Shown: positions 2,859 to 54,663 of the stretch, in pieces | Numbering within the stretch: position 1 is the stretch's first letter | Layout: every line of letters begins with the position of its first letter | Assembly: GCA_902779565.1 (NCBI GenBank) | Contig: CACZCD010000001.1 | Span: 3,929-67,928, forward strand | Origin: an uncultured bacterium | GTDB taxonomy: Bacteria > Verrucomicrobiota > Kiritimatiellia > RFP12 > UBA1067 | Direction: 5' to 3' | DNA: 64,000 nucleotides | Translations under genes and position numbers: made by a program | The notes under the pieces: model-generated | What the model was told of the DNA's origin: nothing | The model's input: the letters and a program-made list of their open reading frames with translations, nothing else | Databases searched by the model: none

Positions 2859-4589
2859 TCATTTCAACCGGCCGATGAACGAAATCCGGCCGGCGCCCGT
2901 TGGCTTCTCGTAGGCGAGCGGATAGTTGGCGAGCGCCGCCAGCGGCGAGGCGGCCGAGGTGAGGGAGGGCTGACCCGTTGCATCCTTCTGGAAAGCCTTC
3001 GCATATTCCGCCAGCACCAGATAGTCCGTCGCCATGCCGTTCTCAATCTTCTTCGTGCTGCGGAACATCGCGAACCCATCGCCGCCATCCACAAGTGTAA
3101 AGCCATTCCCGACAACACGATAGACGCCGTGCGGATCAAGCGGAACGAACTTCCCCTCCTTGCGGTCGTAAACCTGCACGTTCTTGACGCGATAGACGCC
3201 GTTCGACGGTCCAGCCACCCATGCACCCGTCGCATCCACCTGTATGGCGGACTTCACCGTCACGTCCACCGCATACTTGAGACCGGCGACCTGAAGAAAT
3301 CCGCCGAACTCCGCCTCGCCCCCAACCTGCGCACCGAACTCAAGCGCGTCGAGAATCTGCCGCCCGTTCGCCTCCACCACGCCGATGTCCCCGCCGAACG
3401 GCTGCACTGTGCGGAGCGCCTTGAGCGTCACGTCGCCCGCTGGGATGTCCGCGCGCACGTTGCCGCCGTTCATGAGCGCACAGTCGCACGCGAAACCATA
3501 CCGCTCGTTCGCGCACCACCACGCGGCATCCGCCGCGAAATCACCCGCCGAGCAATCTTCCTTGCGCGCCAGACGGTCCGTCGTGCCCGGCACATAGGCG
3601 CAGAGCGCGGTGGGGGCGACCGCCACGCGCTTCCCCAGCTGACGCGCCACCTTGTCGGCCAGCTCCTGTTCGAGACGGGCCACCGCCGGCTTCTTCTCGC
3701 CGCGCGGATACACCGTACCGGCGGCGACGCACCGTCCATCCTCAAACGTCAACGAGCCCAAGATGCCGAGGTAGCTGCCACTCTGCGTGAGCACCACCTC
3801 TTGCCCCACCGCGTTACGCACGCGCATGCCGGTATACTCGGAATGCGAATGGCCATCGATGAACGCAACCACGTTCGTGGTGTGCGCAATCACGTCCAAT
3901 GACCGATAACCCGCACAGTCGGGCGACACGCCCATGTGACCGAGCAGGATCGTGTAGTCCGCGTGCGCGGCAGCTTCGTCCACGGCCTGCTGCACGGCGG
4001 CATAGAGCGCGTCGCCACGCTCTCCCGCAATGAAATCGTACGCGCGCCAACTCCCCGAGGGATCGAGGAAGGTTGACGGTTTCGCCGAGACGAGCGTGGT
4101 GGGCGTGGTGACGCCGACGAACGCCACGCGCACCGTCCCCGCCGTCACCACCACATACGACGGCAGCACGCGCGTCCCCGGATCGTCAGGTGCCTTTCGG
4201 TGGATGAAGTTGCAGCAGGTGTAGCGGAACGTCGCTCGACGGACATTGTCAAACATCGTCTGCATGCCATAGTCGAACTCGTGGTTGCCGAGCGTCGCCA
4301 CGTCGTAGCCGGCGGCGTTCATGATGCCGATCACGCTGCGGCCCGAATCGTATCCGCCGAGGGCGGTGCCCTGCACATGGTCGCCCGCATCCACCAGGAT
4401 CACATGTTCACCAGCCGCCTCAAGGCGATCCTTTTCCGCCGCAATCGCCGAGAACGCGACAAGCCCGTCGTCAATGTGGGAATGTGTGTCGTTCGTGTGC
4501 AGCACCGTCACACGCGCGGCTACAGCCGTGCACGACACAAGCATCGCCGCCACGACGATCATTCCATTCATTTTTCTTTCTTTCATCAT
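2859..4589 (-). CDS. Secreted 5'-nucleotidase / UshA-family bifunctional metallophosphatase
   Basis: LHTNDTHSH, DAGDHVQGT and GNHEFDYG metallophosphatase motifs plus a C-terminal 5'-nucleotidase domain. I place the start at ATG 4589 (MMKERKMNG..., signal peptide, AAGGAG 6 nt upstream). The ORF-track start at 4745 would translate the tandem repeats. Confidence 0.9.
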   Translation of the reverse strand: MMKERKMNGMIVVAAMLVSCTAVAARVTVLHTNDTHSHIDDGLVAFSAIAAEKDRLEAAGEHVILVDAGDHVQGTALGGYDSGRSVIGIMNAAGYDVATLGNHEFDYGMQTMFDNVRRATFRYTCCNFIHRKAPDDPGTRVLPSYVVVTAGTVRVAFVGVTTPTTLVSAKPSTFLDPSGSWRAYDFIAGERGDALYAAVQQAVDEAAAHADYTILLGHMGVSPDCAGYRSLDVIAHTTNVVAFIDGHSHSEYTGMRVRNAVGQEVVLTQSGSYLGILGSLTFEDGRCVAAGTVYPRGEKKPAVARLEQELADKVARQLGKRVAVAPTALCAYVPGTTDRLARKEDCSAGDFAADAAWWCANERYGFACDCALMNGGNVRADIPAGDVTLKALRTVQPFGGDIGVVEANGRQILDALEFGAQVGGEAEFGGFLQVAGLKYAVDVTVKSAIQVDATGAWVAGPSNGVYRVKNVQVYDRKEGKFVPLDPHGVYRVVGNGFTLVDGGDGFAMFRSTKKIENGMATDYLVLAEYAKAFQKDATGQPSLTSAASPLAALANYPLAYEKPTGAGRISFIGRLK

Positions 4590-4605: not shown

Positions 4606-4640
4606 AGTTGGTAGTTGATAGTTGGTGGTTGATTTGTCTC
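4606..4640 (-). repeat. Heptamer tandem repeat forming the 5' leader of the nucleotidase gene (mRNA sense ACCAACU/AUCAACU x4)
   Basis: The plus strand reads AGTTGGT AGTTGAT AGTTGGT GGTTGAT TTGTCTC. This is near-identical in architecture to 25361-25400, upstream of the esterase gene. Confidence 0.8.
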
Positions 4641-4705
4641 ACGCAGAGGCGCAGAGGACGCAGAGAGAAATTTCGGAGTTGTGACTCCGCTCAAAAAATA
4701 ACATG

Positions 4706-4777
4706 GATTCCACCTTTCCACTTTTCCACCTTTCCACCATTCCACCTTTCCACTTTTCCACCTTTCAACCTTTCAAC
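4706..4777. repeat. Nine exact-length 8-bp tandem units NNTTCMAC (minus-strand sense GTKGAANN)
   Basis: gaTTCCAC ctTTCCAC ttTTCCAC ctTTCCAC caTTCCAC ctTTCCAC ttTTCCAC ctTTCAAC ctTTCAAC. The U32 stop codon (4765-4767) lies inside unit 8. Confidence 0.9.
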
Positions 4778-7427: not shown

Positions 7428-7652
7428 CGCGGGAAAGGCGCTTGTGCTTGTGTTTGTTGCCAGTCCGTGGCCGCGTCCGTTGTAGCCCGTTGCCTGTCCG
7501 TTAGGCGTCCGTATTAGCCCGTGTGAAGTCCGTAATCTGCCTGAAGCCTGTCCATGATATGTCCGTGGGTAGTCCGTGGTGTGTCCGTCTATGGGAGGGC
7601 GAGTGTCCTCGTGAAACGCCTCAAGTCCGTAATGCGTCCTTCTCGTATCCGT
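7428..7652. repeat. Array C: GTCCGT (complement of ACGGAC) hexamers at about an 11-bp period, plus a terminal block that is an inverted copy of 23224-23287
   Basis: Cores start at 7463, 7475, 7485, 7496, 7507, 7517, 7528, 7539, 7550, 7561, 7572, 7583, 7605, 7625, 7636 and 7647, with degenerate positions at 7594 and 7616. Segment 7428-7490 equals the reverse complement of 23224-23287 except for one T indel. Confidence 0.9.
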
Positions 7653-7660
7653 GTGAAGAA

Positions 7661-7697
7661 ATGCGAAAAGGCGGGCGGCCCGAAGACCGCCCGCCGC
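7661..7697 (-). terminator. Rho-independent terminator of the HU-like gene cluster
   Basis: The minus strand reads GGCGGGCGG-tcttcggg-CCGCCCGCC followed by TTTTCGCATTT, about 70 nt downstream of the stop at 7766. Confidence 0.7.
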
Positions 7698-7765
7698 CAC
7701 GGAGGGTGCGCGCGTCCACGAATGCAATCCGCTACGCAATCGCGCGCCTCCGTCTTTCTCCGCCC

Positions 7766-8833
7766 TTATATCGAGACGACAGTCACCGTCACCGGCGAAG
7801 AGGTGTGATCCGCACCGCCGCTGTGGCGCGTCACCGTGACCGAAACCTCGGAATTGTCCAGTACATCGTCGAGTCCGGTGGGCCACTCGGACTTCAAGTA
7901 CACATCGGTCATCTCGTGTACGCTTCCCCAGACCTCCGCACCGTCCTCGCGGGTGAATTTCACCGACAACTCTGAGCCGTCATACCCGAAGTTGCGCCCA
8001 GAGATCATGACTTCCTCTCCCTTGATGAGCTGCCCCGGTATGGCACCCGCAGCCGTAGAGACGATTGAGGTCACCACCGGTGTCAGATCCGGTCCGGGCG
8101 GGATCGCCGCCGCCTTGACCGTGACCTTGTGCAGAGCCGTGACGAGCGGAGCCGTGGGGTCGAGACCGTGCGAGACGAGCCGCACGTAGTATGTCCCCGC
8201 CGATACCGCCGAGGCGAGCGTGCAGATGATCCGCTGGCCGTCCTCGGTGGAGACCACCGTGATGTCTGCGACCTTGGTCAGTCCGTCCGCCGCAACGAGC
8301 GCAAGGGATTCGTCCTCGCCGTCCGGCACCGTGAGATCGATGCCCGCAATGCGGAACTCCTTCAGTCCGTCGATCAGGCGGTAGGTCTCGGACGCGAGAT
8401 CCATGACAGAACTGATCTTCACGTTGCCGTTCACCGCTTCCACCCCGAGGCTTGTCGGTGCTATGCCGGACACCGCATCGCGGATGTCCTGTGAGAGCGT
8501 CGCGCCGATGTAGAGCGTGTTGCGCGGGGCGCGGAACTCGTCGTCCTCGCTGTCGAACGCCCCGCCAATCATCGGATAGAGCGACACCGCGCCCATGTTG
8601 ATGCGTACGACATCGTCCGCGATCTTCTCGGCGGCAAACTCATAGAACGCGTTCAGGAAGTACTGCGCCGTAGCGCGGGTCATGAACGTGCCCCTGTCGA
8701 GCATCCGCTGGAGGATGTTGTCGTAGGCGAGCGAGCCAATCGGAACGGCCACGCCAAGATACGGAGCCTTCGCCGCCGTCGAAGTGCCGTTACGCACGAG
8801 ACGGTAGCCGACTTTCATTGTCTTCGTTGACAT
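7766..8833 (-). CDS. HU-like DNA-binding domain protein with C-terminal Ig-like (DUF4469-type) repeats
   Basis: 355 aa. The N-terminal about 100 aa (KVGYRLVRNG...YLGVAVPIGSLAYDNILQRM...VRINMGAVSLYPMIGGAF) follows the Bacteroidota-type HU/DUF4469 pattern. It is a paralog of the next gene. Confidence 0.7.
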   Translation of the reverse strand: MSTKTMKVGYRLVRNGTSTAAKAPYLGVAVPIGSLAYDNILQRMLDRGTFMTRATAQYFLNAFYEFAAEKIADDVVRINMGAVSLYPMIGGAFDSEDDEFRAPRNTLYIGATLSQDIRDAVSGIAPTSLGVEAVNGNVKISSVMDLASETYRLIDGLKEFRIAGIDLTVPDGEDESLALVAADGLTKVADITVVSTEDGQRIICTLASAVSAGTYYVRLVSHGLDPTAPLVTALHKVTVKAAAIPPGPDLTPVVTSIVSTAAGAIPGQLIKGEEVMISGRNFGYDGSELSVKFTREDGAEVWGSVHEMTDVYLKSEWPTGLDDVLDNSEVSVTVTRHSGGADHTSSPVTVTVVSI

Positions 8834-8850
8834 GATGTTTATCCTTTCTT

Positions 8851-9558
8851 TTATTCCGCCTTCACGACAATGTTCTTCACCTTTGCCGTTGCGGGCTTCA
8901 GCGATTCGCGCATCCCGTTGCGGCAGCTCACGACAAGCGTGTACGTGCCGGGTTCAGGCGGCTCCGCGAAGACGCAGTCGATGGTCTGGCTATCGCTCCG
9001 CTCCACTGTCGCCGTGGCGACGATGTCGCCCGTCTTGGCGTTGACGAGCCACACGCCCTCGTCCGGGTTGTCCGGCGAGATGCCGAGTTTCTGACCCTGA
9101 ATGAGCACGCGATTCGTGCCGGTGATCTCGGAAACGCGCTTCGTGACGGCGTCCATCACGGCGGCGACCGTACAGGTGAGACCGAGCGTGACGTTCTCCG
9201 GCAGCACCGCCGACATCGCACTCTTGAGCGGATCGAGCGTGCGTATCGTCGCGATGAGCTGGTGCCGTTCCGGATCGAACGCCTCATCCTCGCTCATGAA
9301 CGCGCCGCGTATCGCGAAGCCCGTGGTGAGCTGTCCGAGGTTAATGCGGTAGCCCGCAATCAGCTGAGTCATGATCTCCTCCGAGAGCGCGTCGAGGAAG
9401 TACTTCCACAGCGATGCGTCCTGCTTGGTGCGCTCCGCAAGACGCTCCGCGAGTTCATCGCGCCCGATCGTGCCGTTCGTCTGAACGTGGGCTGTATAGA
9501 CCACGCGATCCGTGATTGCGTCAGGAACACGCGTCAGGGAGAATACGATATTGTCCAT
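8851..9558 (-). CDS. HU-like DNA-binding domain / DUF4469 protein
   Basis: 235 aa. N-terminal HU-like module (VYTAHVQTNGTIGRDELAERLAERT...YRINLGQLTTGFAIRGAF). C-terminal DUF4469-like Ig module (LIQGQKLGISPDNPDEGVWLVNAKTGD...PGTYTLVV). Confidence 0.75.
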   Translation of the reverse strand: MDNIVFSLTRVPDAITDRVVYTAHVQTNGTIGRDELAERLAERTKQDASLWKYFLDALSEEIMTQLIAGYRINLGQLTTGFAIRGAFMSEDEAFDPERHQLIATIRTLDPLKSAMSAVLPENVTLGLTCTVAAVMDAVTKRVSEITGTNRVLIQGQKLGISPDNPDEGVWLVNAKTGDIVATATVERSDSQTIDCVFAEPPEPGTYTLVVSCRNGMRESLKPATAKVKNIVVKAE

Positions 9559-9571
9559 TGCATTCCCCCTT

Positions 9572-9763
9572 TCACTTGTTCACCTGAATGCCGAACGGCA
9601 CGCCAAGCCCCACAACCCCGATTGTGTGTGCGGAGTCCGCCGGAGTCGTGACGGCGGTGCATCCCGCAAGCGCCGCACCTGCGACGCCCGCAACGGCCGC
9701 AACTGCGGCCCGTACCGCCTCCTTCAGGAAGGCGATCAGCTTGTTCTTCAGCTTGCTTTTCAT
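9572..9763 (-). CDS. Small putative lipoprotein (63 aa)
   Basis: MKSKLKNKLIAFLKEAVRAAVAAVAGVAGAALAGC... with an LAGC lipobox-like site. Start placed at ATG 9763; the longer ORF-track start is unsupported. Confidence 0.5.
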   Translation of the reverse strand: MKSKLKNKLIAFLKEAVRAAVAAVAGVAGAALAGCTAVTTPADSAHTIGVVGLGVPFGIQVNK

Positions 9764-9876
9764 TGACTGTTTTCCTTTGTCTGCATTGAACGGCGGCGAG
9801 CGCATGGCCACGCGGACATGTACGTCCTCCGCCACCATGCATTGGCGTCGGGGATGCGTCCGGGTTCGGAAAATCT

Positions 9877-10374
9877 TCAGAAACCTTCCGCCGCCCACAA
9901 CGCCTTGAACCGCGAAATGAATCCCGGCAGAACATGACGCCGGAACGTCCACATGGCGATGCCGATCTCCGCCGCGACCTTCTTCCAGTTCAGCAGCTTC
10001 ATGTAAAGTTCGGCAATCCGGCGATCCTCCGGCGAAAGCCGAGCGACGGTGTGGCGCACCGCAAGGCGGTCACGCTCCCGGACACGCTGACGCGACGACA
10101 TGGCGTACATGTCCCGCACGGCCTCAACGGCAGGCTCTCCACACCGCATCTGCCACGGAATGAGGGACCGAAAATTGCGCCGCCCTTCGTTCTGCGCCTC
10201 GTTCAAAGCCAAGGAAAGCGCAGCCTTCCGACCGCGCTCCCCTTTATCCTTATTATAGTGCAACCTCCGCAGTATCATGTTCTCGACATCCGATTCGTCG
10301 AGTCCATACGGACGATGCTCACGCACATAGCGCCTCGACCAATGCCGAGCGAAGTCGATTGATTTCCGGTCCAT
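9877..10374 (-). CDS. Sigma-70 region-4-like HTH protein (small sigma/ECF-like regulator)
   Basis: 165 aa. LSPEDRRIAELYMKLLNWKKVAAEIGIAMWTFRRHV resembles a sigma70_r4-type HTH. I see no clear region 2. Confidence 0.6.
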   Translation of the reverse strand: MDRKSIDFARHWSRRYVREHRPYGLDESDVENMILRRLHYNKDKGERGRKAALSLALNEAQNEGRRNFRSLIPWQMRCGEPAVEAVRDMYAMSSRQRVRERDRLAVRHTVARLSPEDRRIAELYMKLLNWKKVAAEIGIAMWTFRRHVLPGFISRFKALWAAEGF

Positions 10375-10484
10375 GCCAATGTCCTTTTTCTGGTGGAGGT
10401 CCGGCCCATTCCAGACACTCCCAAGACATTGGCATCGACTTCGCCATCAGGTTCGGTTTCAACGAAAACAATTCAAAAAACTTA

Positions 10485-10631
10485 GCAGGGTGCGACACCC
10501 GGACATCGCACCCTGCAATCACCAAACTCCGCAAGGTGCGACACGGACACTTCGCACCCTGCGACTCTCTCTTGTTGCACCCTGCAACATCGCGCTATCG
10601 CACCTTGCCACTTTCGCCCGTCATACCCTGC
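10485..10631. promoter_or_regulatory. Iteron/operator cluster: two 32-bp palindromes (GCARGGTGCGA-N10-TCGCACCCTGC) plus three direct half-sites, right halves phased at 23 bp
   Basis: Right half-sites at 10506, 10552, 10575, 10598 and 10621. Inverted left halves at 10485 and 10531. The cluster lies 110-260 bp upstream of the sigma-like gene. Confidence 0.8.
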
Positions 10632-10803
10632 GACTCAAAAAACCTCTTTTAGGGCACCCAAACCACCGCCCCCGCATCATCGCGCCGCCCCTCCGCTCAT
10701 GCATTGAAGGCCCCTGTTCTCCACCGTTTTAACAAAGGAGGGCCGCCACCGACATTGGCCTGCCTTCCGAATTCATTGGTGCAATAGCTTGTTCATTCAT
10801 AGT

Positions 10804-11634
10804 TTACATCTTTGGCATCGTGTCCTTCATGCCAAGCGCAAGATACTTGGAGCGCGCATAGTCGTAGTACTTGAGATCGACTATGGAATTCTCTGGAATG
10901 CCGATCGAGGCAAGGTAGCGGTGACGTGCAGTGGTGTCCACGCCATCGGTGCAGCCGGGCACAACAAGGCAGCGAACCTCCATCTTCGCCTTCGCCGCGA
11001 CCAGCCGCTCAAGATTCTTCCTGACGATCTTGTTTGAAACTCCCGTGTACTTCATGTGCAACGTATCGTCCTCGGCCTTGTAGTCTGGGAGCCACAGGTC
11101 CGTGACGGGCAGCATCGCGTCAATCGCAGCGGGTGGCGCGTAGAGCGATGTGTCAAGGCATGTATGAAGTCCGGCGGCCTTGAATGCCTTGAACAGCTCC
11201 GCCGCCCATTCCCAGAAGAACAGCGGTTCGCCGCCGGAGAGCGTCACGCCACCGCCCGACTCGTCGTAGAACGCCTTGTCCTCAAGAGCCTTCGCGACGA
11301 TCTCGGGAATCGTCATCGGCTTGCCGTAGAGCTTGAGCGCCCGCGTCGGACACGTTGCCTCGTCCATCGTGCAATGCTCGTGGTGCTTGCACAGGTGCTG
11401 GAACCGCGCCCACTGCGCCTCAGACTTTATCGATTCGGGGTTGTGGCACCAGATGCACTTCAAGGGGCACCCCTTCACGAAGAAGGTCGTGCGGATGCCC
11501 GGCCCGTCCCAGATCGCCATCCGTTTAGTGTCGAGCATCAGCGGCGCCTTAACGGCACGCCCGGCTGCGGACAGCATTGGGCTTACGGCAAACGCTGTCG
11601 AAGATACGATGAAACTCTTGCGCGTTACAGTCAT
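10804..11634 (-). CDS. Glycyl-radical enzyme activating enzyme (radical SAM, PflA-like short type)
   Basis: DGPGIRTTFFVKGCPLKCIWCHNPES (CxxxCxxC) and GGVTLSGGEPL. An alternative start at M33 (MLDTKRM) is possible, since the first 30 aa look signal-like. Confidence 0.9.
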   Translation of the reverse strand: MTVTRKSFIVSSTAFAVSPMLSAAGRAVKAPLMLDTKRMAIWDGPGIRTTFFVKGCPLKCIWCHNPESIKSEAQWARFQHLCKHHEHCTMDEATCPTRALKLYGKPMTIPEIVAKALEDKAFYDESGGGVTLSGGEPLFFWEWAAELFKAFKAAGLHTCLDTSLYAPPAAIDAMLPVTDLWLPDYKAEDDTLHMKYTGVSNKIVRKNLERLVAAKAKMEVRCLVVPGCTDGVDTTARHRYLASIGIPENSIVDLKYYDYARSKYLALGMKDTMPKM

Positions 11635-11638
11635 TATG

Positions 11639-11686
11639 TCACCACTGCTTCATGATATTCTCGGCACGGCGGATGTAGGCATGCCC
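11639..11686 (-). pseudogene. Relic 3' end of a glycyl-radical enzyme gene (16 codons)
   Basis: The minus strand reads GHAYIRRAENIMKQW-stop, preceded by an in-frame TAA. The intact enzyme ends DAYIRRAENVMKGW-stop at 17821-17865. Confidence 0.75.
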
Positions 11687-11717
11687 TTATTGTGCCACAT
11701 TGGCGCATCAGCCACTT

Positions 11718-14700
11718 TCAAGGCAAATATGGACGAATGCAGACGAAATTGACGCCCAGGCGCTCACCCTTGGACGCGGCCTCGTCCGTGATCACGAGTT
11801 CCGTTTCGCCGCGCTCGGCCGCAAACACGACCTGATGCAGGTTGATCCGCCCGTATTTGCCCTTCTTCTTGCTGACCTTCGTGCTGCGGTCAACATATGA
11901 CCAGCTGAGTTCGGGAAGCAACCGCACACCGTCCTTGAAGATGGCCTTAAGCGGAATTTCGCGCGGGTTGGCCTTTCCGGCCTTCATGTCGTCCACATCA
12001 AACGTGGCGTACCTGAGAACGTATGTCCTCCCAGCGACAAGGCCGCAGACCGACTGCGTAAGGTTGTTCGCGGTTTCGCCGCGCTTGAACGAAGCGAAGG
12101 TGTCGCCGCATCCAGTTCTGCCCGCCAGATAACGGTTTTCGGCCCACTCGGCAAGCTTGGGGCATTCGTCAAGCGTCACGTCCCCATGCACCTTCCACGG
12201 CCCGAAAGCGTGCTCGAAATCGCCGTTCCGGAGATGGCCCGGGATGTAGCGCAGACCATACTGCTCCGCAATCGAATCGGTGCGTCCCTCTATGCAGTAG
12301 TGCCGCATCAGGCGGAACGACCAGCGCAGCGTATCGTCATCGGCATGATGGGCGCCCCAGTAACCGGCGGCGACGAGACCATCGCATCGCGGGTCGGTGG
12401 CGAGCGCGTGTATCTGCATCGCGAGATACGCGTTGTAATCGACCTCGGGATGGTGCGCGATCGAAAGCTGCAGAAGCCCCGTGAAGTTCCCACTGACCAC
12501 GCCCAGGCAGTCCTGGCAGAACGGATGCGTATCGCGATACAGCCCCACGCCGACAATCATGGATTCGATGGCCGCAAGCGCCTCAGCCTCCGTCTTTTTC
12601 GTGCGCATATAGCGCTCGTTGAGGAGAAGTCCGCGCCCATGGCCGGCATTCGCAATCGCCGCGAACATCTCGGACTCAATCGGCCGCCGCGTTGGCGACG
12701 CGATCACCCAGGTGCAGACCGTCCGCTCCGTGTCGCGTTCCGCGCAGAACTTCTCGATGGCGTCTATGAACTCCATGTTGGTCTTGTCGTTCTTCGGGCG
12801 GAGTCCCTGTTCGTCGAGCGTGATGCCGTCGCATGCGCGCTGGTTCAGCCCCGTCGATCTGCCGATGTTCCTGCTCATCCTCTCGGCCGTGCCGAGCGTC
12901 CTCACGTTCGCGAGCCACTGCCGCCCGAGGTCGTGCAACCGCCCGATGCTCTCCTTGGGCGCAGGCCCGCCGTTCATCGTCGTCACGCTTGGAACCACGT
13001 AGCGCCAGTAGAAGTCCCAATCGTAGCTCTCCTTGAGCGGCAGCTTGCGCGCGTAGGGGGCATAACAGATGATCATGGGGATCTCGCGCACCGCAATCCG
13101 CCCGGCGCCCTTGACGGCAAGCTGGTGCTCGCCTTGAGAAACAAGCCGCACCGTCTCCAGGGCGGGCGTGCCGTTCGTTATCACGCACTGCCCGTCAAGG
13201 CTTACCTCCGCGCTGTCAGCACCCGACACTCCGATGAACACCCATCCGTGTCTCCGCGTCTCGAACAGAAACTCTCCGGACGTCTCCTCCCCTGGCATTT
13301 TGGCGTCCAGCACCTCGGTCACGTAGTTGTTGAGTCGTTTGCGCCGCTCGGGATGCTTGATCTCCTGCACGGTCTCCACGCCGTACCGATACTTCTTCTC
13401 GTGTATTGCCGTTCCATCGCTGCGGCGCACCAGCGAAACCGTCATACAACCGGAATCGGCATTCTCCGGTAACGTGAAGAACATCTCGTCGCGCACAAGC
13501 GGTGCCCGCAGTTCGCCGCCCCATCCTTCGGAAGATATGAAGACGTCGCAAGTGCTCAGATCGGCGCCGCCCGGCAACTCCCCGAAAAAGCGAAACGAGA
13601 AACGCCGGTCGTCGCTTCTGATCCGCGCAAGCCGGCGGCTCCAAGGCACGAAGCGGGGCTTGCCGTCCACGGATTCGACGGTCCTGTCGGCATCCGAATG
13701 GGCAGTCCAGAATATGGCCGGCCTCAGATCGACATCGCCATCTGCGAGCGTAAACTTCACGTCCTCGAGCTTCACGTTGTCGGCGCAGTCGATGTAGAGG
13801 CCGAATGCCGGCAGGATTGAGGACCCGAAGCTGACCGCAGCATCAGGATACGCTCCCGGCAGCTTCGGCACGGGCTTTTCCATCGCCTCCTTGCTCTTCT
13901 CCTCCCCGGCACCATGGCATGTGATCTTCACGTTCCGCAACGTTACGTTCTTCGCGCGGCATCCGTCAACGCCGGTGATGGAGCTCGCCACAACGCCGTC
14001 CGCCTCGCCCGTCACGTTCTCGATCACGATGTCGCGCAGGATGTAGCTTTTGCCCGGCGACACTCCGGTTGAACGCCCGGTGCGCGTGCCGCCGCGCACG
14101 AATATCGGAACCTTCGCGCCATTCTCAAACGTTATACCGCTGTACCGCACCTGCTCCACCATTCCACCGTCCACGCACTCAACGGAGATGGCCGAGTTGG
14201 CAACGCCGAACGGCGCGCGCTTCGTCGCGCGCCAGAAATACCTGTTCTTCCCGCGATGTTTGGGATTCTTCGAAAGACAGTCGCGCCTCGCGGCCTCGCA
14301 GCGACAGTCTTCGAAGCGGATATTGCGCACCGTGCCGTGGCTGGCCGTGCCTATCTTGAACACGTTGCATTGCGAGCGCCCCACGCAGCGGCGGATCAGG
14401 ACGTTCTCCACGGTGTAGTCTGGGTCGTTGGATTTTATGCAGAACGCATCGTCGCCCGAATCGACATCGCAGTCCTCGATAAGCACGTTCTTCGCCTCGA
14501 TGTCGAACCCGTCGTTGAAGGAATCGGCATGGCTATCGACCTTCACGCGCCGCGCCACAACGTCCTCGCAGCGCTTGAACACGATTCCCCAGCAGGCCGC
14601 GTCGCGCAGGGTGAAATCCTCCAGACGCACCCCCTTGCAGTCCCCGAAGAACAGTCCGCGTGCGTTCAGGCCCTCGCGGCAACCCTTGACGTCCTTCGGG

Positions 14701-15062
14701 CGCTGCGGCCAGCTGAAGCCGTCGCCAAACACCGTCCCCGGCCCCGTGACCGCAACGTTCGTGGCGCAGAGCGCGAACACCACCGCGCTCCACGTCCCCT
14801 CGGAACACGGAAGTTCGGTTACGCGGTAGTCCTTGATGTTCGCAGACCCTTGCAGAACTGCGCCTTCGGCAAGATGCAGCTCCACATTGCTCTTGAGGTC
14901 AAGCTGTCCCACAAGATGCCGCCCGGCCGGCACAACCACCCGTCCACCGCCAGCCGCGTTCGCCGCATCGATCGCGGTCTGCCAGCGCGCGGTTTCGAAA
15001 CCATCTGCAAAAGCGGCCAGCTTGATTGCGCCGGCCGCCGCTACGCAAAATGCACGCAACAT
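11718..15062 (-). CDS. Secreted multidomain glycoside hydrolase: N-terminal GH28-like beta-helix, C-terminal CBM-like domain
   Basis: NDGFDIEAKNVLIEDCDVDSGDDAFCIKS (GH28-type catalytic Asp pattern). Signal peptide present. A C-terminal NGDFE... galactose-binding-like module. ATG at 15062 overlaps the upstream stop (TGATG); the ORF-track start at 15065 is GTG. Confidence 0.8.
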   Translation of the reverse strand: MLRAFCVAAAGAIKLAAFADGFETARWQTAIDAANAAGGGRVVVPAGRHLVGQLDLKSNVELHLAEGAVLQGSANIKDYRVTELPCSEGTWSAVVFALCATNVAVTGPGTVFGDGFSWPQRPKDVKGCREGLNARGLFFGDCKGVRLEDFTLRDAACWGIVFKRCEDVVARRVKVDSHADSFNDGFDIEAKNVLIEDCDVDSGDDAFCIKSNDPDYTVENVLIRRCVGRSQCNVFKIGTASHGTVRNIRFEDCRCEAARRDCLSKNPKHRGKNRYFWRATKRAPFGVANSAISVECVDGGMVEQVRYSGITFENGAKVPIFVRGGTRTGRSTGVSPGKSYILRDIVIENVTGEADGVVASSITGVDGCRAKNVTLRNVKITCHGAGEEKSKEAMEKPVPKLPGAYPDAAVSFGSSILPAFGLYIDCADNVKLEDVKFTLADGDVDLRPAIFWTAHSDADRTVESVDGKPRFVPWSRRLARIRSDDRRFSFRFFGELPGGADLSTCDVFISSEGWGGELRAPLVRDEMFFTLPENADSGCMTVSLVRRSDGTAIHEKKYRYGVETVQEIKHPERRKRLNNYVTEVLDAKMPGEETSGEFLFETRRHGWVFIGVSGADSAEVSLDGQCVITNGTPALETVRLVSQGEHQLAVKGAGRIAVREIPMIICYAPYARKLPLKESYDWDFYWRYVVPSVTTMNGGPAPKESIGRLHDLGRQWLANVRTLGTAERMSRNIGRSTGLNQRACDGITLDEQGLRPKNDKTNMEFIDAIEKFCAERDTERTVCTWVIASPTRRPIESEMFAAIANAGHGRGLLLNERYMRTKKTEAEALAAIESMIVGVGLYRDTHPFCQDCLGVVSGNFTGLLQLSIAHHPEVDYNAYLAMQIHALATDPRCDGLVAAGYWGAHHADDDTLRWSFRLMRHYCIEGRTDSIAEQYGLRYIPGHLRNGDFEHAFGPWKVHGDVTLDECPKLAEWAENRYLAGRTGCGDTFASFKRGETANNLTQSVCGLVAGRTYVLRYATFDVDDMKAGKANPREIPLKAIFKDGVRLLPELSWSYVDRSTKVSKKKGKYGRINLHQVVFAAERGETELVITDEAASKGERLGVNFVCIRPYLP

Positions 15063-16402
15063 CACTCAATGCTCCCCATGCAGACGAGACGCACACCGTG
15101 CGTCTCGCTTCTATACGTCGGAGAGCCGTTCCCACGCGAAGCAGACCTGCATAAAGAAGCCGCACTTCCGTAGTAACCTCCACGCACAACGCGCATAGAT
15201 GAAGTGCCACGCCGCGGAGACTGGCCATCGTCGGAGACGTTTGCCGCTCCGTTGAGGCTGGAGCAGTCGTCCACATAGTAGTCGTGGCACCATTCCCCCA
15301 AGTTGCCATGCATATCGTAGAGTCCCCAACTATTCTTGCCGTACGACCCGACAGCCGCAGTTGCGTTGTTGGTGGTGCAGAACCTGTCGGGAGCGTCCGT
15401 ACCGTTCACAAGCCCGCCGTTGTACTTGTACCGCCCTGGCAGATTGGAATCTTCTTCCGCATTAGAGTACGGAGTGCCGTCGCCCCATTTGCCTTCGCCG
15501 TTGCCGGCGCGGCAAGCGAATTCCCACTGCGCTTCCGTGGGCATGTCGAAGTCTATGCTTGTCCGCTTGCGAATCATTCCGAGAAATGAATTCTTATGTG
15601 GTGCTTGGGGCCAGTAGGTGGTCTTGTCTGGTTGCACCTGGCTGGTAGTCACCCACCCGGAACACCTGATCTCGGTATAGGCAACGCGATCTACCGGACG
15701 CATTGCTTTGTATGCCTCGTTCGTGTATATGCTGGGGCACTTCCCCATCACGTGATACCATTGCGTCTGGGTCACGGGGAATACGCCGATGTAGTAGTCG
15801 TTCGAGAGCGTCACGAGATGCGGAATTTCGTTTGCCGAGTTGCGCCCAGCCTCGTTGACGCTGCCCATGGTCCACTCCACGTTCTTCGCGTGGATGCGGC
15901 GCATGACCATCTTCGTGGTGCGGTAGTCGTCGTTGCCAAGAAGGCCGCCGGGAAGGAACTCCTCGGACGGATAGTACGCCTGCGTATTTGTCGATACGGT
16001 TGTGATATCCACCACCATGTAGTCCGGCGGCGCGTTCGTCTCCCAGGCCGTGAGAACGGCGCGGATGTTGTTCGCGGGAACCCTGTGTCCCGGCCACGAG
16101 AGGTCGGGCCGCCATTTGATGGAGTAGCGCGACTTGCCGCCAACGATACGGAACACGTCGCTGTCCTCGGTGAAGTTCTGGATGTGTTCGCCGCCGATCG
16201 ACACCCATCCGTTCGCGCCGTTCGTCTGCACGTCAAGCGTCACCACCGCCGGAGACTGCGTGAGTGAATACTCGATGGTTACCGTTCGCCTGACTTGCCG
16301 CACCGTCATGTCTGTGACCTCAGGAAGGTCCGCAATTCCGGAGACGGCGGCGCACGCCGTAATTGCCGCCGCGAATGCCATTTTCATCTTCTGTGCTTTC
16401 AT
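15062..16402 (-). CDS. Secreted SUMF1/FGE-sulfatase domain protein with an N-terminal Ig-like region
   Basis: WGLYDMHGNLGEWCHDYY...RVVRGGYYGSAASLCRSASR, the formylglycine-generating-enzyme fold signature. Signal peptide present. Confidence 0.85.
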   Translation of the reverse strand: MKAQKMKMAFAAAITACAAVSGIADLPEVTDMTVRQVRRTVTIEYSLTQSPAVVTLDVQTNGANGWVSIGGEHIQNFTEDSDVFRIVGGKSRYSIKWRPDLSWPGHRVPANNIRAVLTAWETNAPPDYMVVDITTVSTNTQAYYPSEEFLPGGLLGNDDYRTTKMVMRRIHAKNVEWTMGSVNEAGRNSANEIPHLVTLSNDYYIGVFPVTQTQWYHVMGKCPSIYTNEAYKAMRPVDRVAYTEIRCSGWVTTSQVQPDKTTYWPQAPHKNSFLGMIRKRTSIDFDMPTEAQWEFACRAGNGEGKWGDGTPYSNAEEDSNLPGRYKYNGGLVNGTDAPDRFCTTNNATAAVGSYGKNSWGLYDMHGNLGEWCHDYYVDDCSSLNGAANVSDDGQSPRRGTSSMRVVRGGYYGSAASLCRSASRGNGSPTYRSETHGVRLVCMGSIE

Positions 16403-16423
16403 TGTTTTTCCTCTTTGATTGGG

Positions 16424-16621
16424 TTACCTGATGCAGACCGAAATTCCACGGAAGAGCCCGTCGCTGTTAAAGTCGAATCCGGAGACCGCCGTTTCCGTGC
16501 AGTATCTGGTATCAAGCTCGAAACCGAACAAAGCCACGCCTGGCATCACCACGTCGTCTGACGCGGTGGAGGCCGCCATCAATGCCGCCGTTGCGGCAAG
16601 AACTGCAATCTTCTTCATCAT
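16424..16621 (-). CDS. Small secreted protein (65 aa)
   Basis: MMKKIAVLAATAALMAASTASDD... signal peptide. GGAGAGAG lies upstream. The ATG overlaps the upstream stop (ATGA). No homology that I recognise. Confidence 0.5.
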   Translation of the reverse strand: MMKKIAVLAATAALMAASTASDDVVMPGVALFGFELDTRYCTETAVSGFDFNSDGLFRGISVCIR

Positions 16622-17685
16622 GCTCTCTCCTTTTGTTTTAATGCTTCTGCGAAAAGATCTATACCCTTGAGGTTGAAGTCGAGGTTCGCCTGCGAACAGC
16701 AGTTGGCCCATGGGGCCATGAGAAAACCGAGGAGGTGTTCGCTCAATATGTGCTTGCGGCAGTACGGCACGAGCGCGCCGATGATGTCGTCGCCGCCGGT
16801 CTTCTGCCGTTTGCGCGCACCGGCGCCCGCCCAGTTCGTGCCGCACGGTATCTGGTCGAAGCCAGCCTTCTCAAGCGCATCGAACGCAGCAAGGCGGTGC
16901 GCGTGCCTGTTGATCTTCGGATCGAGCGACCATTGTCCGAGCTGTTCGTCGTAGTACCAGTTGGACTGCACCACGCTTCTCGGGCAGCGCGTGAAGAACT
17001 CCTCGTGCTCCCAGCCGAAATCACTCCACACCCAGGCGCGCGAGCCAAGCTCCTCCACGCAGCCGACGGTGTAGAGGAAATCGCGCCACCACATGTCGCC
17101 CTGGCGCATGACGAAGTAGTCGCGCCCAGGCGCAAAAAGCGCAGTCTCCTCGTCCCAGCCGAGGTGGAAGAAGCGAGGACGCGAGAAGATCTCCGAAACG
17201 TCACGGATGACGTCTTTGGCCACAATATACCATTCCGGCAGCGTCAACATCCTATGATAATCCTTAAGCCAGCCGTCGTGCGTAGCGGAGAAGTTCAGCT
17301 TCGGGATCGGCTCAAGGCCTGCGGTCCTTAGGCGCTCCACCTCCGCGCGAAGCTTCTCCGCCGACCAGCTGCCCTCAATCGCCAGCTCGGGATGGCTGGG
17401 ATAGATGAGACCCTCGCCGATATCAATCACGATCATGTTGAGATTGCGCTCAACCATCCTATCCGTCACGCGCCGCCAAAGTTCTTCCTTGCATCGAAGG
17501 TTCAGGTCTGGAGTCAGGCGTTTCGGCAGGGAATGCCAAAGATGGCGCGGCAGCCACTCGCCCCACATGTTGTGGCCAAGATGCATCAGCATGGCGCGGA
17601 TGGGTTCCTTCCCGCCTGCATAAGCACCGCCCGCCCCGCGCGTTCCGCGCGAGGCATCGGTGTTGCTATTGATGTCAGTTGCCAT
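16618..17685 (-). CDS. TIM-barrel glycoside-hydrolase-like protein (GH20-like motifs)
   Basis: 355 aa. IRAMLMHLGHNMW and FHLGWDEE resemble the GH20-type R-x-LD and H-x-G-x-DE regions, so the functional call is tentative. Confidence 0.6.
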   Translation of the reverse strand: MATDINSNTDASRGTRGAGGAYAGGKEPIRAMLMHLGHNMWGEWLPRHLWHSLPKRLTPDLNLRCKEELWRRVTDRMVERNLNMIVIDIGEGLIYPSHPELAIEGSWSAEKLRAEVERLRTAGLEPIPKLNFSATHDGWLKDYHRMLTLPEWYIVAKDVIRDVSEIFSRPRFFHLGWDEETALFAPGRDYFVMRQGDMWWRDFLYTVGCVEELGSRAWVWSDFGWEHEEFFTRCPRSVVQSNWYYDEQLGQWSLDPKINRHAHRLAAFDALEKAGFDQIPCGTNWAGAGARKRQKTGGDDIIGALVPYCRKHILSEHLLGFLMAPWANCCSQANLDFNLKGIDLFAEALKQKERA

Positions 17686-17820
17686 TTGCTTTATGCCGCT
17701 TGATCCTGATGCAACTCTGGTTGTTCCTTAATTGGCGCGTGTTATATCCCGACCGCATCCTATTTCGCAATCCCGATAGAAAGGTGAATCCGCCATCTCG
17801 CATAGGACAGTCATTGTGTG

Positions 17821-25346: not shown

Positions 25347-25360
25347 GTTAATCCTTTTTT

Positions 25361-25433
25361 AGTTGATAGTTGATAATTGATGATTGGTGGTCTAGTCTCA
25401 ACCTTTCCACTTTTCCACCTTCCCACTTTTAAC
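25361..25433. repeat. Composite intercistronic repeat: heptamer leader (AGTTGAT x4-5) plus octamer units (NNTTCMAC x5)
   Basis: The plus strand reads AGTTGAT AGTTGAT AATTGAT GATTGGT GGTCTA then GTCTCAAC CTTTCCAC TTTTCCAC CTTCCCAC TTTTAAC. It abuts the AI-2E stop at 25435 and the esterase RBS. Confidence 0.85.
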
Positions 25434-33297: not shown

Positions 33298-33660
33298 CTA
33301 CCAGGAGCGGTAATAGACCGGCGGAGGCGGCGGGGGCGGCGGCGCCACCACAACCGGGGCCGGGGAATAGACCGGGGTGCTATAGACCGGCGTGCTATAG
33401 ACCGGTGTGCTATAAACCGGCGTGCTATAGACTGGCGCAGGCGCCACGACAACTGGCGGACGAACGATGCTGTTCACGATCGCCGCAGTGCCGAGAGCGG
33501 CTCCCGCAATGCCCCATCCGCAATGGTGGTGATGATGATGGTAGCCATGGCCACCATGGAACCTAGGACCGCCATGGAACCCACCATGGAACCCCGGACG
33601 GGCGAACATCACACCTGCCGTTGCCACGACTGCCAGCATTACTATCAGTTTCTTGTTCAT
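33298..33660 (-). CDS. Small secreted His-rich / Pro-rich repeat protein
   Basis: 120 aa. Signal peptide, GFHGGFHGGPRFHGGHGYHHHHHHC, a hydrophobic segment, (PVYST)x5, and a polyproline run. Confidence 0.7.
   Translation of the reverse strand: MNKKLIVMLAVVATAGVMFARPGFHGGFHGGPRFHGGHGYHHHHHHCGWGIAGAALGTAAIVNSIVRPPVVVAPAPVYSTPVYSTPVYSTPVYSTPVYSPAPVVVAPPPPPPPPVYYRSW
33362..33435. repeat. 15-bp tandem repeat (NGTGCTATAGACCGG, 4 full units plus 1 partial) encoding PVYST units
   Basis: Read directly inside the His-rich protein gene. The repeat is in frame (15 bp equals 5 codons). Confidence 0.9.
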
Positions 33661-53881: not shown

Positions 53882-53966
53882 GCACTAAAAAATTAATTAC
53901 CGAAAAACGGGAAACCGCTTCATTTTCGGCAGAATGTTTTCCGATTGGGCAAACGGAGGGGTGGAT

Positions 53967-54410
53967 TTAGGTCAGAAGCTCTACCGAAAACGGTCCGTCG
54001 TTGAGGAGGCGCACCTTCATCTCCGCGCCGAAACGACCAGTGCCGACGCGCGACGCGCCGAGCTTCGCGCGGAGATCCGCCACCACGCGTTCATACAGCG
54101 GTTCCGCGAGTTCCGGACGCGCCGCGTTCGAAAATCCCGGGCGCCGCCCGTGGGACGTATCGGCATAGAGCGTGAACTGCGACACCACGATCACGCTACC
54201 GCCCACGTCGAGAAGCGAGCGGTTCGTCTTCCCGGCCTCATCCTCGAAGATGCGCAACGTGCAGAGGCGCTCGGCCATTTCGTCCGCCGCCTTCTCCGTA
54301 TCCGTGTGAGTCACGCCAAGCAGCACAAGATAGCCCTGCCCGATCTCCGCGACCCGTTCGCCCGCAATCTCGACCGACGCCTCGGTCACGCGTTGGACCC
54401 ATGCCTTCAT
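53967..54410 (-). CDS. dtd: D-aminoacyl-tRNA deacylase
   Basis: MKAWVQRVTEASVEI...GYLVLLGV...VSQFTLYADT..GRRPGF...NDGPF. Start placed at ATG 54410. Confidence 0.93.
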   Translation of the reverse strand: MKAWVQRVTEASVEIAGERVAEIGQGYLVLLGVTHTDTEKAADEMAERLCTLRIFEDEAGKTNRSLLDVGGSVIVVSQFTLYADTSHGRRPGFSNAARPELAEPLYERVVADLRAKLGASRVGTGRFGAEMKVRLLNDGPFSVELLT

Positions 54411-54432
54411 GCCGTCTGCCCTCCGTGTCACC

Positions 54433-54663
54433 TTACCGGCGGATGTCGCGGCTGACCCCGTTCGTCGCCACGTTCAGCAAGATGTCCAGCTTGGAATCCA
54501 TACCCTCAAGGCGGCTGTTCAACCCAGCCACGTCATGGTCGATCTTTTCCTGCAGCATGCTGTTCGTCACCGCATCCGGCTGCGCGGTGAGCCGCATGCC
54601 GATGTACAGTCCGCCAATGAACACAACGGTCAGCACGAGTGCCGTGATCAATGCTATCTTCAT
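54433..54663 (-). CDS. Small single-pass membrane protein
   Basis: 76 aa with an N-terminal TM helix (IALITALVLTVVFIGGLYIG). The ATG overlaps the upstream stop (ATGA). Confidence 0.55.
   Translation of the reverse strand: MKIALITALVLTVVFIGGLYIGMRLTAQPDAVTNSMLQEKIDHDVAGLNSRLEGMDSKLDILLNVATNGVSRDIRR

Follow-up and report, generated by a model that had tools for sequence, protein, structure and literature searches.

An HU-Ig gene cassette with a wholesale-exchanged C-terminal domain and putative operator repeats, located at one end of a transposon-like island in a Kiritimatiellae bacterium

A stretch of 64,000 nucleotides of a metagenomic contig (CACZCD010000001.1) from a Kiritimatiellae bacterium of ruminant or gut samples, referred to here at its full length as the window, carries a cassette of four co-directional open reading frames (ORFs) on the minus strand, within positions 7766-10374. 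Two of them encode large HU-like proteins, and the whole stands between two kinds of phased DNA repeats. Do these proteins read the repeats, or do they serve another purpose? A preliminary description had proposed a self-contained nucleoprotein system of HU-like DNA binders, with segregation, silencing or architectural control of the surrounding island as possible roles. The comparisons reported here speak against that proposal: the two proteins are acidic and have short arms, the upstream repeats track the first gene of the cassette, and the array on the other side is the end of an inserted island. Instead, the cassette looks like a self-regulated, horizontally shuffled module at a conflict or recognition interface, confined to one clade of Kiritimatiellae from the rumen or gut, a reading that in our judgement could go either way.

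We call the four ORFs gene 1, the small gene (gene 2), HU235 (gene 3) and HU355 (gene 4); their coordinates, and those of all other features, are collected in Table 1. The intergenic gaps measure 113, 13 and 17 nt from gene 1 to gene 4, a spacing that couples the last three genes tightly and leaves gene 1 a little apart. A strong intrinsic terminator closes the unit (folding energy -32.7 kcal/mol, z = -4.0); a simple scanner misses it because its tail has only four T in eight. Both the co-directional four-gene unit and the terminator had been described beforehand, and both are present. Neither an Rfam nor a tRNA scan of the window gave any hit.

The two large proteins had been taken for paralogs, which they are, with 29% identity over 220 aa (E = 8e-16) in an alignment that extends through the DUF4469 domain. 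Both match PF14848 (HU-DNA_bdg) above the Pfam cutoff of 30, HU355 with 49.0 bits (7.5e-13) and HU235 with 43.3 bits (4.6e-11). HU235 also exceeds the cutoffs for DUF4469 (PF14734; 29.6 bits, 6.8e-07, cutoff 22.6) and for PF18291 (HU-HIG; 28.5 bits, 1.7e-06, cutoff 26.2). The combination of an HU-like module with Ig-like domains, which had been ascribed to both proteins, is confirmed; HU355 by itself stays below threshold for DUF4469 (17.9 bits) and for TIG. A HMMER search of 1.8 billion representatives retrieved 559 related clusters, mostly of 230-250 aa. A profile of 66 relatives, 54 of which match PF14848 and 39 DUF4469, finds PDB entry 4FMR with E = 4.4e-16 along both domains (residues 26-219). 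The same profile reaches classical HU at 2e-6, covering only the two helices and the first strand and ending before the arms. In the AlphaFold model of HU355 two β-sandwich domains are confident (residues 140-355, predicted local distance difference test score, pLDDT, >90), and in a Foldseek search with this model, a check that the preliminary description had proposed, the top four matches are 4FMR chains (E = 2.9e-9 to 1.5e-8). The template modelling (TM) scores to 4FMR reach only 0.27-0.39, owing to the poor HU part of the model. HU235 and HU355 belong to the HU-HIG (HU plus immunoglobulin, Ig) family, and within it to the Ig subclade.

For the prototype of this family, 4FMR (BVU_2165), Burroughs et al. 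(2017, PMC5499826) concluded that the DNA cleft is filled or blocked by the Ig domain. HU-HIG proteins sometimes occur as adjacent paralog pairs and have almost no conserved operon links, and their rapid diversification was read as a sign of a role in conflict (PMC5499826). That the family is best known from Bacteroidota, as had been stated, agrees with the literature; the copies studied here are from Kiritimatiellae. We found no papers on DUF4469, and the one paper naming PF14848/PF14734 merely lists such a gene as differentially expressed.

Classical HU and IHF are basic and have long β-arms with Arg and Pro, and neither property is found in HU235 or HU355. The net charge is -7 for HU235, -6 for the constant part of HU355 and -10 for its C-terminal part. 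Where the arms would be, the two paralogs have an acidic loop of 15 residues, GAFMSEDEAFDPERH in one and GGAFDSEDDEFRAPRN in the other (SEDEAFDPERH / SEDDEFRAPRN), whose S-E-D is invariant in 76 sequences of both paralogs. Since the proteins are acidic and their arms short and acidic, DNA wrapping in the manner of HU/IHF is unlikely, and the HU-Ig proteins have the look of scaffolds that carry an exchangeable domain for recognition and do not bind DNA.

The exchange concerns the third Ig-like domain of HU355, which follows a Pro-rich linker. We compared 78 full-length HU355 homologs and defined C-terminal types as clusters at ≥50% identity. The median pairwise identity is 85.4% in the first ~240 residues and 25.4% in the last 85+ residues, and the 78 sequences contain 39 C-terminal types, the variable part being 99-127 residues long in the 29 sequences measured. 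Among pairs whose constant parts are at least 95% identical, 60% have C-terminal parts that are less than 40% identical. In the comparison of the window with the related locus L016, the nonsynonymous and synonymous substitution values (dN/dS) go from 0.007/0.15 in the constant part to 0.71/0.82 in the variable part, with the step at the linker. As dN and dS both jump there, the domain was replaced by recombination and not mutated in place. Gene 4's third Ig-like domain is therefore replaced wholesale between near-identical cassettes, a feature that is absent from the preliminary description and is not described for HU-HIG proteins in PMC5499826. All types are strongly acidic, with net charges of the C-terminal part from -9 to -18. 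A mechanism of the diversity-generating retroelement type was rejected, as both dN and dS rise in the variable part. No silent copies of other C-terminal types were found in the window, and a pilE/pilS-like system within the 64 kb was rejected on this ground.

The cassette itself is a discrete unit that one clade of Kiritimatiellae from the rumen or gut has conserved. Its gene order (gene 1, small gene, HU235, HU35x) is repeated in L003/4, L005, L007 and L012-L018, and is seen in at least eight other contigs or metagenome-assembled genomes (MAGs) with unrelated flanks. Neighbours in these relatives include Metallophos, GH20/DUF6259, AAA ATPases and a prophage with a serine integrase. The flanks in the window consist of ordinary chromosomal genes: one side has rpmE, prfA and a U32 peptidase, the other yqeY and a SASA esterase. 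The DNA homology between the window and L016-18 (96.8%) extends exactly from 10644 to 8088; it sets in some 30 nt upstream of the first of the palindromes described below and stops at the Pro-rich linker within HU355. The upstream boundary lies at 10644/10651; at the other side all other locus pairs likewise lose DNA homology at 8082-8110, and similarity resumes at the terminator, which is kept in L003, L006, L016-18 and L156. All four genes are under purifying selection, with dN/dS ratios of 0.11-0.13 for HU235, 0.05-0.16 for the constant part of HU355 and 0.20-0.26 for gene 1. The best 120 homologs of HU235 are 86-100% identical to it; distant homologs (~60% identity) are stand-alone genes. 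In one related genome the three-gene part adjoins dtd, and the dtd gene of the window (53934-54455) has no neighbouring cassette. Relatives of gene 1 and HU235 were found neither in 50,697 phages or IMG/VR nor, except for one weak match to a Bacteroidota megaplasmid, in 72,556 plasmids, and an origin of the cassette from phages or plasmids was rejected on the basis of these searches. A search against PHROGs gave nothing significant.

In related loci the 113 nt that separate gene 1 from the small gene are a hot spot of insertion (L019:40-170 and 1490-1620, L013:1124-2281, L002:3415-9628). Two loci hold there a gene for an AAA_14/DUF4143 ATPase on the opposite strand, once with a direct duplication of 130 bp, and the same gap of L002 has taken up 7 kb that encode an EcoRI-like methylase and a GmrSD/HNH nuclease. 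In MAG RUG11483 the HU235 ortholog (L005:6001-6708) is interrupted at codon 70 by an in-frame stop, which marks either a pseudogene or an error of assembly. In the GH20 context, a tRNA gene follows the cassette and its array, and then comes a block resembling a prophage, which encodes a large serine recombinase, DUF2924, a PD-(D/E)XK exonuclease and AAA_24 (L016:9470-9550 and 9873-18573).

If the HU-Ig proteins do not read the upstream repeats, which protein does? The preliminary description had called these repeats iterons. The phased block is real; its units are seven 13-bp imperfect palindromes in mixed orientation (> > > > < > < in gene direction) and likely operators of gene 1. They start at 10483, 10506, 10529, 10552, 10575, 10598 and 10621, an exact period of 23 bp. 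The loose palindrome pattern is not enriched in the window as a whole (15 matches vs 15.3 expected), and the signal lies in the clustering and the exact phase. The TCGCA block is kept upstream of gene 1 in L003/4 and L012-L018. L005/L007 have TCAAT-(CCG/CGG)-ATTGA palindromes in its place, with the layout unchanged, and there gene 1 is only 51-53% identical and has the predicted recognition helix TFR[YH]GV instead of TFRRHV. The remaining genes of L005/L007 stay close to those of the window (small gene 83-84%, HU235 86-92%, constant part of HU355 77% identical); the DNA similarity falls precisely at gene 1, with a mosaic break between gene 1 and gene 2. Because the repeats switch with gene 1 while HU235 stays close, they track the protein with the predicted helix-turn-helix (HTH), and because the units are palindromic across the classes and co-vary with gene 1, their reader should be a dimeric DNA-binding protein. 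The palindromes are most likely gene 1 operators. A third type of repeat, GAACCATGCA at 22-23-bp spacing, lies beside truncated gene 1 copies in L002 and L154, where repeats phased at 21-23 bp (GGAACGGTCAATTT, GAACCATGCA and CTTCAAGTCAA) are found at L002:2600-2850 and 3180-3320 and at L154:9400-9530; diversification and decay apparently proceed fast in the regulator-operator region.

Downstream of the palindromes, the gene 1 leader contains a hairpin, GCCAAUGUC...GACAUUGGC (10375-10440), that stops right at the AUG of gene 1 and takes in the likely Shine-Dalgarno sequence (-33.5 kcal/mol, z = -2.5). The sequence is kept in L003 and L012-L015, and the hairpin may serve translational control. 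No sigma-70 consensus promoter was found in the palindrome and leader region, and none is evident upstream of the block.

Gene 1 has no Pfam domain. Its 57 homologs, 59-97% identical, all come from the same kind of samples, and its N-terminal 95 residues are without known relatives. The sigma-region-4-like HTH that had been noticed in it is recovered by several matches at residues 95-153 (TIGR02937, SigF, sigma-E region 4, PDB entries 3HUG and 2H27, and the LuxR-type EL222), all of them sub-threshold (TIGR02937, for instance, gives 17.6 bits with a cutoff of 42.9). A C-terminal HTH of the sigma-70-region-4/LuxR type, at approximately residues 95-153, is plausible. The product of gene 2 has a Lys-rich N-terminus, a hydrophobic stretch and a lipobox, LAGC, at residues 32-35, followed by a mature part of 28 aa with GVVGLGVPFGIQV; its tail is Gly-rich and conserved. 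The lipobox motif [LVI][ASTVI][GAS]C is matched in the window and in eight other loci, in line with its earlier designation as a small lipoprotein; a long variant of 93-94 aa occurs in L002/L006/L019, and since that of L019 lacks the Cys, lipidation is not universal. We regard gene 2 as encoding a putative small membrane protein or lipoprotein.

Beyond the terminator lies the second kind of repeat, array C, which had been noted there before, as had the location of the module within an island; both observations hold. The 14 GTCCGT-like units of array C are mirrored 15.7 kb away by 22 units, and seven further units form an internal array. GTCCGT occurs 80 times in the window vs 44 ± 6.5 expected, an excess that is due to array C and its partners at 22615-22700 and 23016-23252. 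The outermost 54 nt of the two sides are 100% complementary and unique in the window, with 0 expected by chance, and the insert starts and finishes with GGAAAGGCGCTTGTG...CACAAGCGCCTTTCC. Array C is demonstrably one end of an inverted-repeat-bounded insertion of 15.85 kb, located between yqeY and rpmE, with its right terminal inverted repeat and the adjoining CGCG 22 nt downstream of the yqeY stop codon. We compared ten contigs with identical RpmE, and 8 of the 10 (L140, L142-146, L148 and L149) have SASA-yqeY-97 bp-rpmE-prfA with nothing between. The single CGCG of this empty spacer is present at both junctions of the insert; as CGCG is palindromic, a 4-bp duplication is indistinguishable here from a 54-nt inverted repeat. 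A perfect terminal inverted repeat (TIR) of 50 nt plus a 4-bp duplication, ambiguous as it is, is a classical transposon-like insertion signature.

Besides the cassette, the island has carbohydrate-metabolism cargo; its genes encode a radical-SAM activase, a GH28 protein, an FGE-sulfatase-like protein, a 355-aa protein without significant PDB match, a glycyl-radical enzyme, a Fic protein and an AraC/PAS regulator. Among the island proteins scanned, ten with Pfam and eight with NCBIfam (the latter scan omitted the radical-SAM activase, the glycyl-radical enzyme and the AraC/PAS regulator, and a 65-aa ORF was in neither), we recognised no transposase or recombinase. A search for other insertion sites via the AraC gene led back to the yqeY-rpmE site alone, and it is the one insertion site found for this TIR; in L002, L003 and L016 we did not find island-like inverted repeats. 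A different insert, with an SSF/solute symporter gene, occupies exactly the same yqeY-rpmE position in another contig (L147:5880-5960). It ends with GGGCAACAAGCACAAGCACAAGAGTCTCTCCCG on the rpmE side, resembling the terminal repeat of the island, and has no GTCCGT array or matching other end. This second insert at the same position hints at target specificity.

Is array C tied to the cassette as well as to the island? The inspection of homolog neighbourhoods for arrays, also proposed in the preliminary description, gives a divided answer. The upstream repeats are widely kept, and in the closest cassette relatives (L016/17/18 and L156, two further contexts) the same GC-rich terminator is followed directly by an ACGGAC array. 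No GTCCGT array is found in L002, L003 and L005, where other short-period arrays follow the cassette, nor in L006 and L019, where there is none. The window and L016 share the array and have unrelated HU355 C-terminal domains, and the variable domain is therefore not its reader. Two readings remain: either cassette and array are carried along jointly, since both lie at the end of related islands, or the array is functionally tied to the cassette. Short-period tandem arrays (7-15 bp, strand-asymmetric) are present in many intergenic regions of the window, among them TTCCACCT x8, AGGTTGAA x5 and CCTCTTC x6 (sites at 4606-4774, 25360-25430, 33367-33437, 35735-35837 and 44008-44127), and related loci have comparable ones (L002 11800-11960, L003 11960-12020, L005 after 7830). 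When metagenomes were scanned for four GTCCGT units with 11-bp spacing, >120 contigs with 32-77% GC came up; array homology drawn from it was discarded, the hits being mostly plain 11-bp tandem repeats of unrelated organisms, with only L048 resembling array C.

How could the parts of the cassette work together? Gene 1 dimers would bind the seven palindromes through the sigma-region-4/LuxR-type HTH, the 23-bp spacing would put neighbouring dimers roughly on one face of the helix, and binding would switch the transcription of gene 1 and of the three-gene operon downstream. For HU235 and HU355 the HU fold would serve as a scaffold for dimerisation, and the two may pair as a heterodimer in the manner of IHF α/β; their Ig domains would be presented to a protein or another non-DNA ligand. 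The acidic hypervariable third domain would be the specificity determinant, and the membrane peptide of 63 aa may be an anchor or an effector. A constant scaffold with a swapped recognition domain, insertions of the restriction and ATPase type, and a mobile island would together suit a conflict interface (phage, mobile element or strain recognition). The same pattern does not fit chromosome architecture.

Several observations weigh against this interpretation. PADLOC models return 0 families for the four cassette proteins at E ≤ 1. The HTH of gene 1 lies below every curated threshold (best NCBIfam E = 0.0023), and its PDB profile matches (3HUG, EL222 and 2H27) have E values of 0.26-0.72. The covariation of gene 1 and repeats comprises only two intact specificity classes, and two HTH variants (AMW and SEG) share the same palindromes. 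These can also fold as RNA, the sixth and seventh forming a 14-bp hairpin followed by UAAGUUUUUU in the gene direction. The HU-domain parts of the AlphaFold models have low confidence (pLDDT 36-66 in HU355 and 25-86 in HU235, for which the AlphaFold2 model from an 18-sequence alignment has a pLDDT of 53), and for this reason the arm geometry was taken from sequence and not from structure; at the place of the extra N-terminal β-hairpin that buttresses the HU sheet in HU-HIG proteins, strands are predicted at residues 8-13 and 26-31 of HU355 and at 5-12 and 19-26 of HU235, with pLDDT <50. Lastly, with the window included, the ACGGAC array stands beside the closest cassette relatives in three contexts, for which there would be no explanation if the two had nothing to do with each other.

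A bolder proposition comes in two forms. The cassette could be an undescribed recognition system, in which an HU-fold heterodimer shows a strain-specific Ig sensor for phage or mobile-element molecules, with the 63-aa peptide as output and the seven-site operator as switch; or the HU-Ig proteins could be end-binding or architectural proteins of transposase-less islands with about 20 hexamers at 11 bp. We consider this proposition unlikely.

Among the rival explanations, the one that survives best, although improbable, makes the cassette an end-proximal accessory module of transposase-less or trans-mobilised islands, in which the HU pair would bend DNA in a synaptic complex formed by the 50-nt inverted repeats and about 20 GTCCGT units per end, with gene 1 as regulator. 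HU or IHF are established cofactors of transposition (Mu, Tn10, IS elements). The perfect TIRs, the inverted subterminal arrays, the 4-bp duplication and the empty sites agree with it, and so do the position of the cassette directly inside the left island end, the order cassette-terminator-array in L016-18 and L156, and the insert of L147, with its similar terminal sequence at the identical target position. However, no catalytic transposase or recombinase was recognised in the island and a single insertion site was seen; the HU proteins have an acidic charge and short arms, many cassettes lack such an array, and no inverted repeats were found in L002, L003 or L016.

Next we rank the nucleoprotein proposal with which we began, in which the HU-like proteins would be specific DNA binders coating the upstream repeats, the 11-bp array or both, for segregation, silencing or island architecture. 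The homology to the HU superfamily is real, the cassette does lie between two kinds of phased repeats, the terminator and ACGGAC array accompany the closest relatives in all three contexts, and an 11-bp phase would suit a protein filament on one helix face. Nonetheless, both proteins are acidic and have a short acidic loop in place of basic arms, and the cleft of the prototype is filled by the Ig domain (PMC5499826). The link of these proteins to the two kinds of repeats fares unevenly: the upstream repeats change with gene 1 and not with HU235, and the array that follows the closest relatives is missing, as GTCCGT units, from the cassettes of L002, L003, L005, L006 and L019. Distant HU235 homologs are stand-alone, and window and L016 have the array in common with unrelated C-terminal domains. 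We hold this explanation, too, to be improbable.

That the palindromes act as an RNA leader with alternative hairpins (4:5, 5:6 and 6:7), attenuating the transcription of gene 1, is very improbable. The 6:7 hairpin is followed by a U-run, UAAGUUUUUU, and the region folds with z = -6.2 vs shuffles; but each unit is a 5-3-5 palindrome kept in a second, unrelated class, which is the signature of a protein dimer, a strict 23-bp phase over seven units would be unnecessary, and no promoter is evident upstream of the block. Least credible of all is that the repeat block is a plasmid-type origin or centromere, with gene 1 as a small Rep- or ParR-like protein and the cassette as the remnant of an integrated replicon: the ~22-23-bp spacing and the adjacent A+T-rich stretch resemble theta-replicon origins, which combine iterons with an A+T-rich stretch (RK2/R6K/pSC101), and the cassette occurs in many genomic contexts, but plasmid or phage relatives are missing save for the one weak megaplasmid match, no helicase, partition ATPase or Rep/Par-family domain appears in the proteins scanned, the palindromes are in mixed orientation and not direct iterons, and the contigs are chromosomal.

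Table 1. Coordinates of the cassette, its repeats and the island in the window.
Feature	Position	Strand	Description
Gene 1	9877-10374	minus	165 aa
Gene 2 (small gene)	9572-9763	minus	63 aa, MKSKLKNK...LAGC-T; best reading of the ORF, as called in six other loci
Gene 3 (HU235)	8851-9558	minus	HU-like domain and DUF4469 Ig domain
Gene 4 (HU355)	7766-8833	minus	constant part 8111-8833, variable part 7766-8110
Gene 4, constant part	8111-8833	minus	~240 aa, HU-like and Ig domain
Gene 4, hypervariable C-terminal Ig/TIG-like domain	7766-8110	minus	~115 aa, after the Pro-rich linker
Intrinsic terminator of the cassette	7661-7697	minus	11-bp GC stem, 4-nt loop, then UUUUCGCAUUUCUU
Putative operator ('iteron') array	10483-10633	none	seven 13-bp imperfect palindromes, TCGCA-(GGG/CCC)-TGCGA
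A+T-rich stretch and gene 1 leader	10375-10482	minus	leader hairpin GCCAAUGUC...GACAUUGGC
Island	7432-23283	none	15.85 kb, inserted in the yqeY-rpmE spacer
Left terminal inverted repeat	7428-7481	+	50 nt (7432-7481), preceded by CGCG (7428-7431)
Right terminal inverted repeat	23234-23287	minus	50 nt (23234-23283) and CGCG (23284-23287)
Array C	7463-7652	+	left subterminal array, 14 GTCCGT-like units, mostly 11 bp apart
Right subterminal array	23016-23252	minus	22 units, strict 11-bp register, mirror of array C
Extra internal array	22615-22700	minus	7 units, orientation as in the right array

Compared with known systems, the two proteins share with the Ig subclade of HU-HIG (PF14848/PF18291 plus PF14734; BVU_2165, 4FMR; PMC5499826) the modified HU domain with Ig, a length of ~235-250 aa and the short arms. 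They differ in coming from Kiritimatiellae and not Bacteroidota, in forming part of a conserved four-gene cassette with an HTH gene and a putative operator array, and in that HU235 is highly conserved and diversification is confined mainly to the extra third Ig/TIG domain, exchanged as a block. To classical HU/IHF they are related through the superfamily, with a profile match along helices 1-2 and the first strand, and the pair recalls IHF α/β; HU and IHF, however, are small and basic with long Arg/Pro β-arms, whereas the proteins here are acidic, of 235-355 aa, with a 15-residue S-E-D loop. Gene 1 resembles regulators of the LuxR/GerE and sigma-70 region 4 types, dimers of which bind palindromes, in its predicted C-terminal HTH and in the 13-bp palindromes directly upstream of the gene, although the similarity is sub-threshold and seven sites at a strict 23-bp phase would be unusual. 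Phased sites upstream of the gene of a small DNA-binding protein, with likely autoregulation, are also known from plasmid iterons, ParR-parC and centromere-operators of the omega type; unlike these, the cassette has no partition ATPase or Rep, its units are palindromic, and it is chromosomal without plasmid relatives.

For the island, the systems to compare are mobile insertion cassettes, which are bounded by inverted repeats and lack a transposase, and the IS21 family, Tn7 and Mu, which have multiple subterminal binding repeats. Perfect TIRs, a short target duplication, passenger genes, an empty site and repeats inside both ends are common to these elements and the island. The island differs in its length of 15.85 kb, in having ~14-22 hexamers at 11 bp per end, in that no transposase was identified and in its one insertion site. 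It offers a clean example of an occupied versus an empty site, and a lead to the enzyme and to the role of the array in a poorly studied gut and rumen phylum. HU-HIG is a large branch of the HU superfamily that has expanded and that no experiment has touched; the only published idea about it is a computational guess at genome conflict. The cassette provides a tractable entry to it, with fixed operon partners, a candidate regulator with putative operators in two classes, and a delimited hypervariable domain.

Two further stretches of the island deserve mention. The DNA between the internal and the right array (22705-23026) contains a GC hairpin, C-rich sequence and, on the plus strand, a second hairpin that carries a T-run (22937-22975, z = -3.15); it has no Rfam match and may be a small RNA gene. 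Finally, the stretch at 20512-21654 encodes the Fic-domain protein, with a weak match to 'mobile mystery protein B', and has 51-52% GC vs ~62% for the window, which suggests a separately acquired piece.

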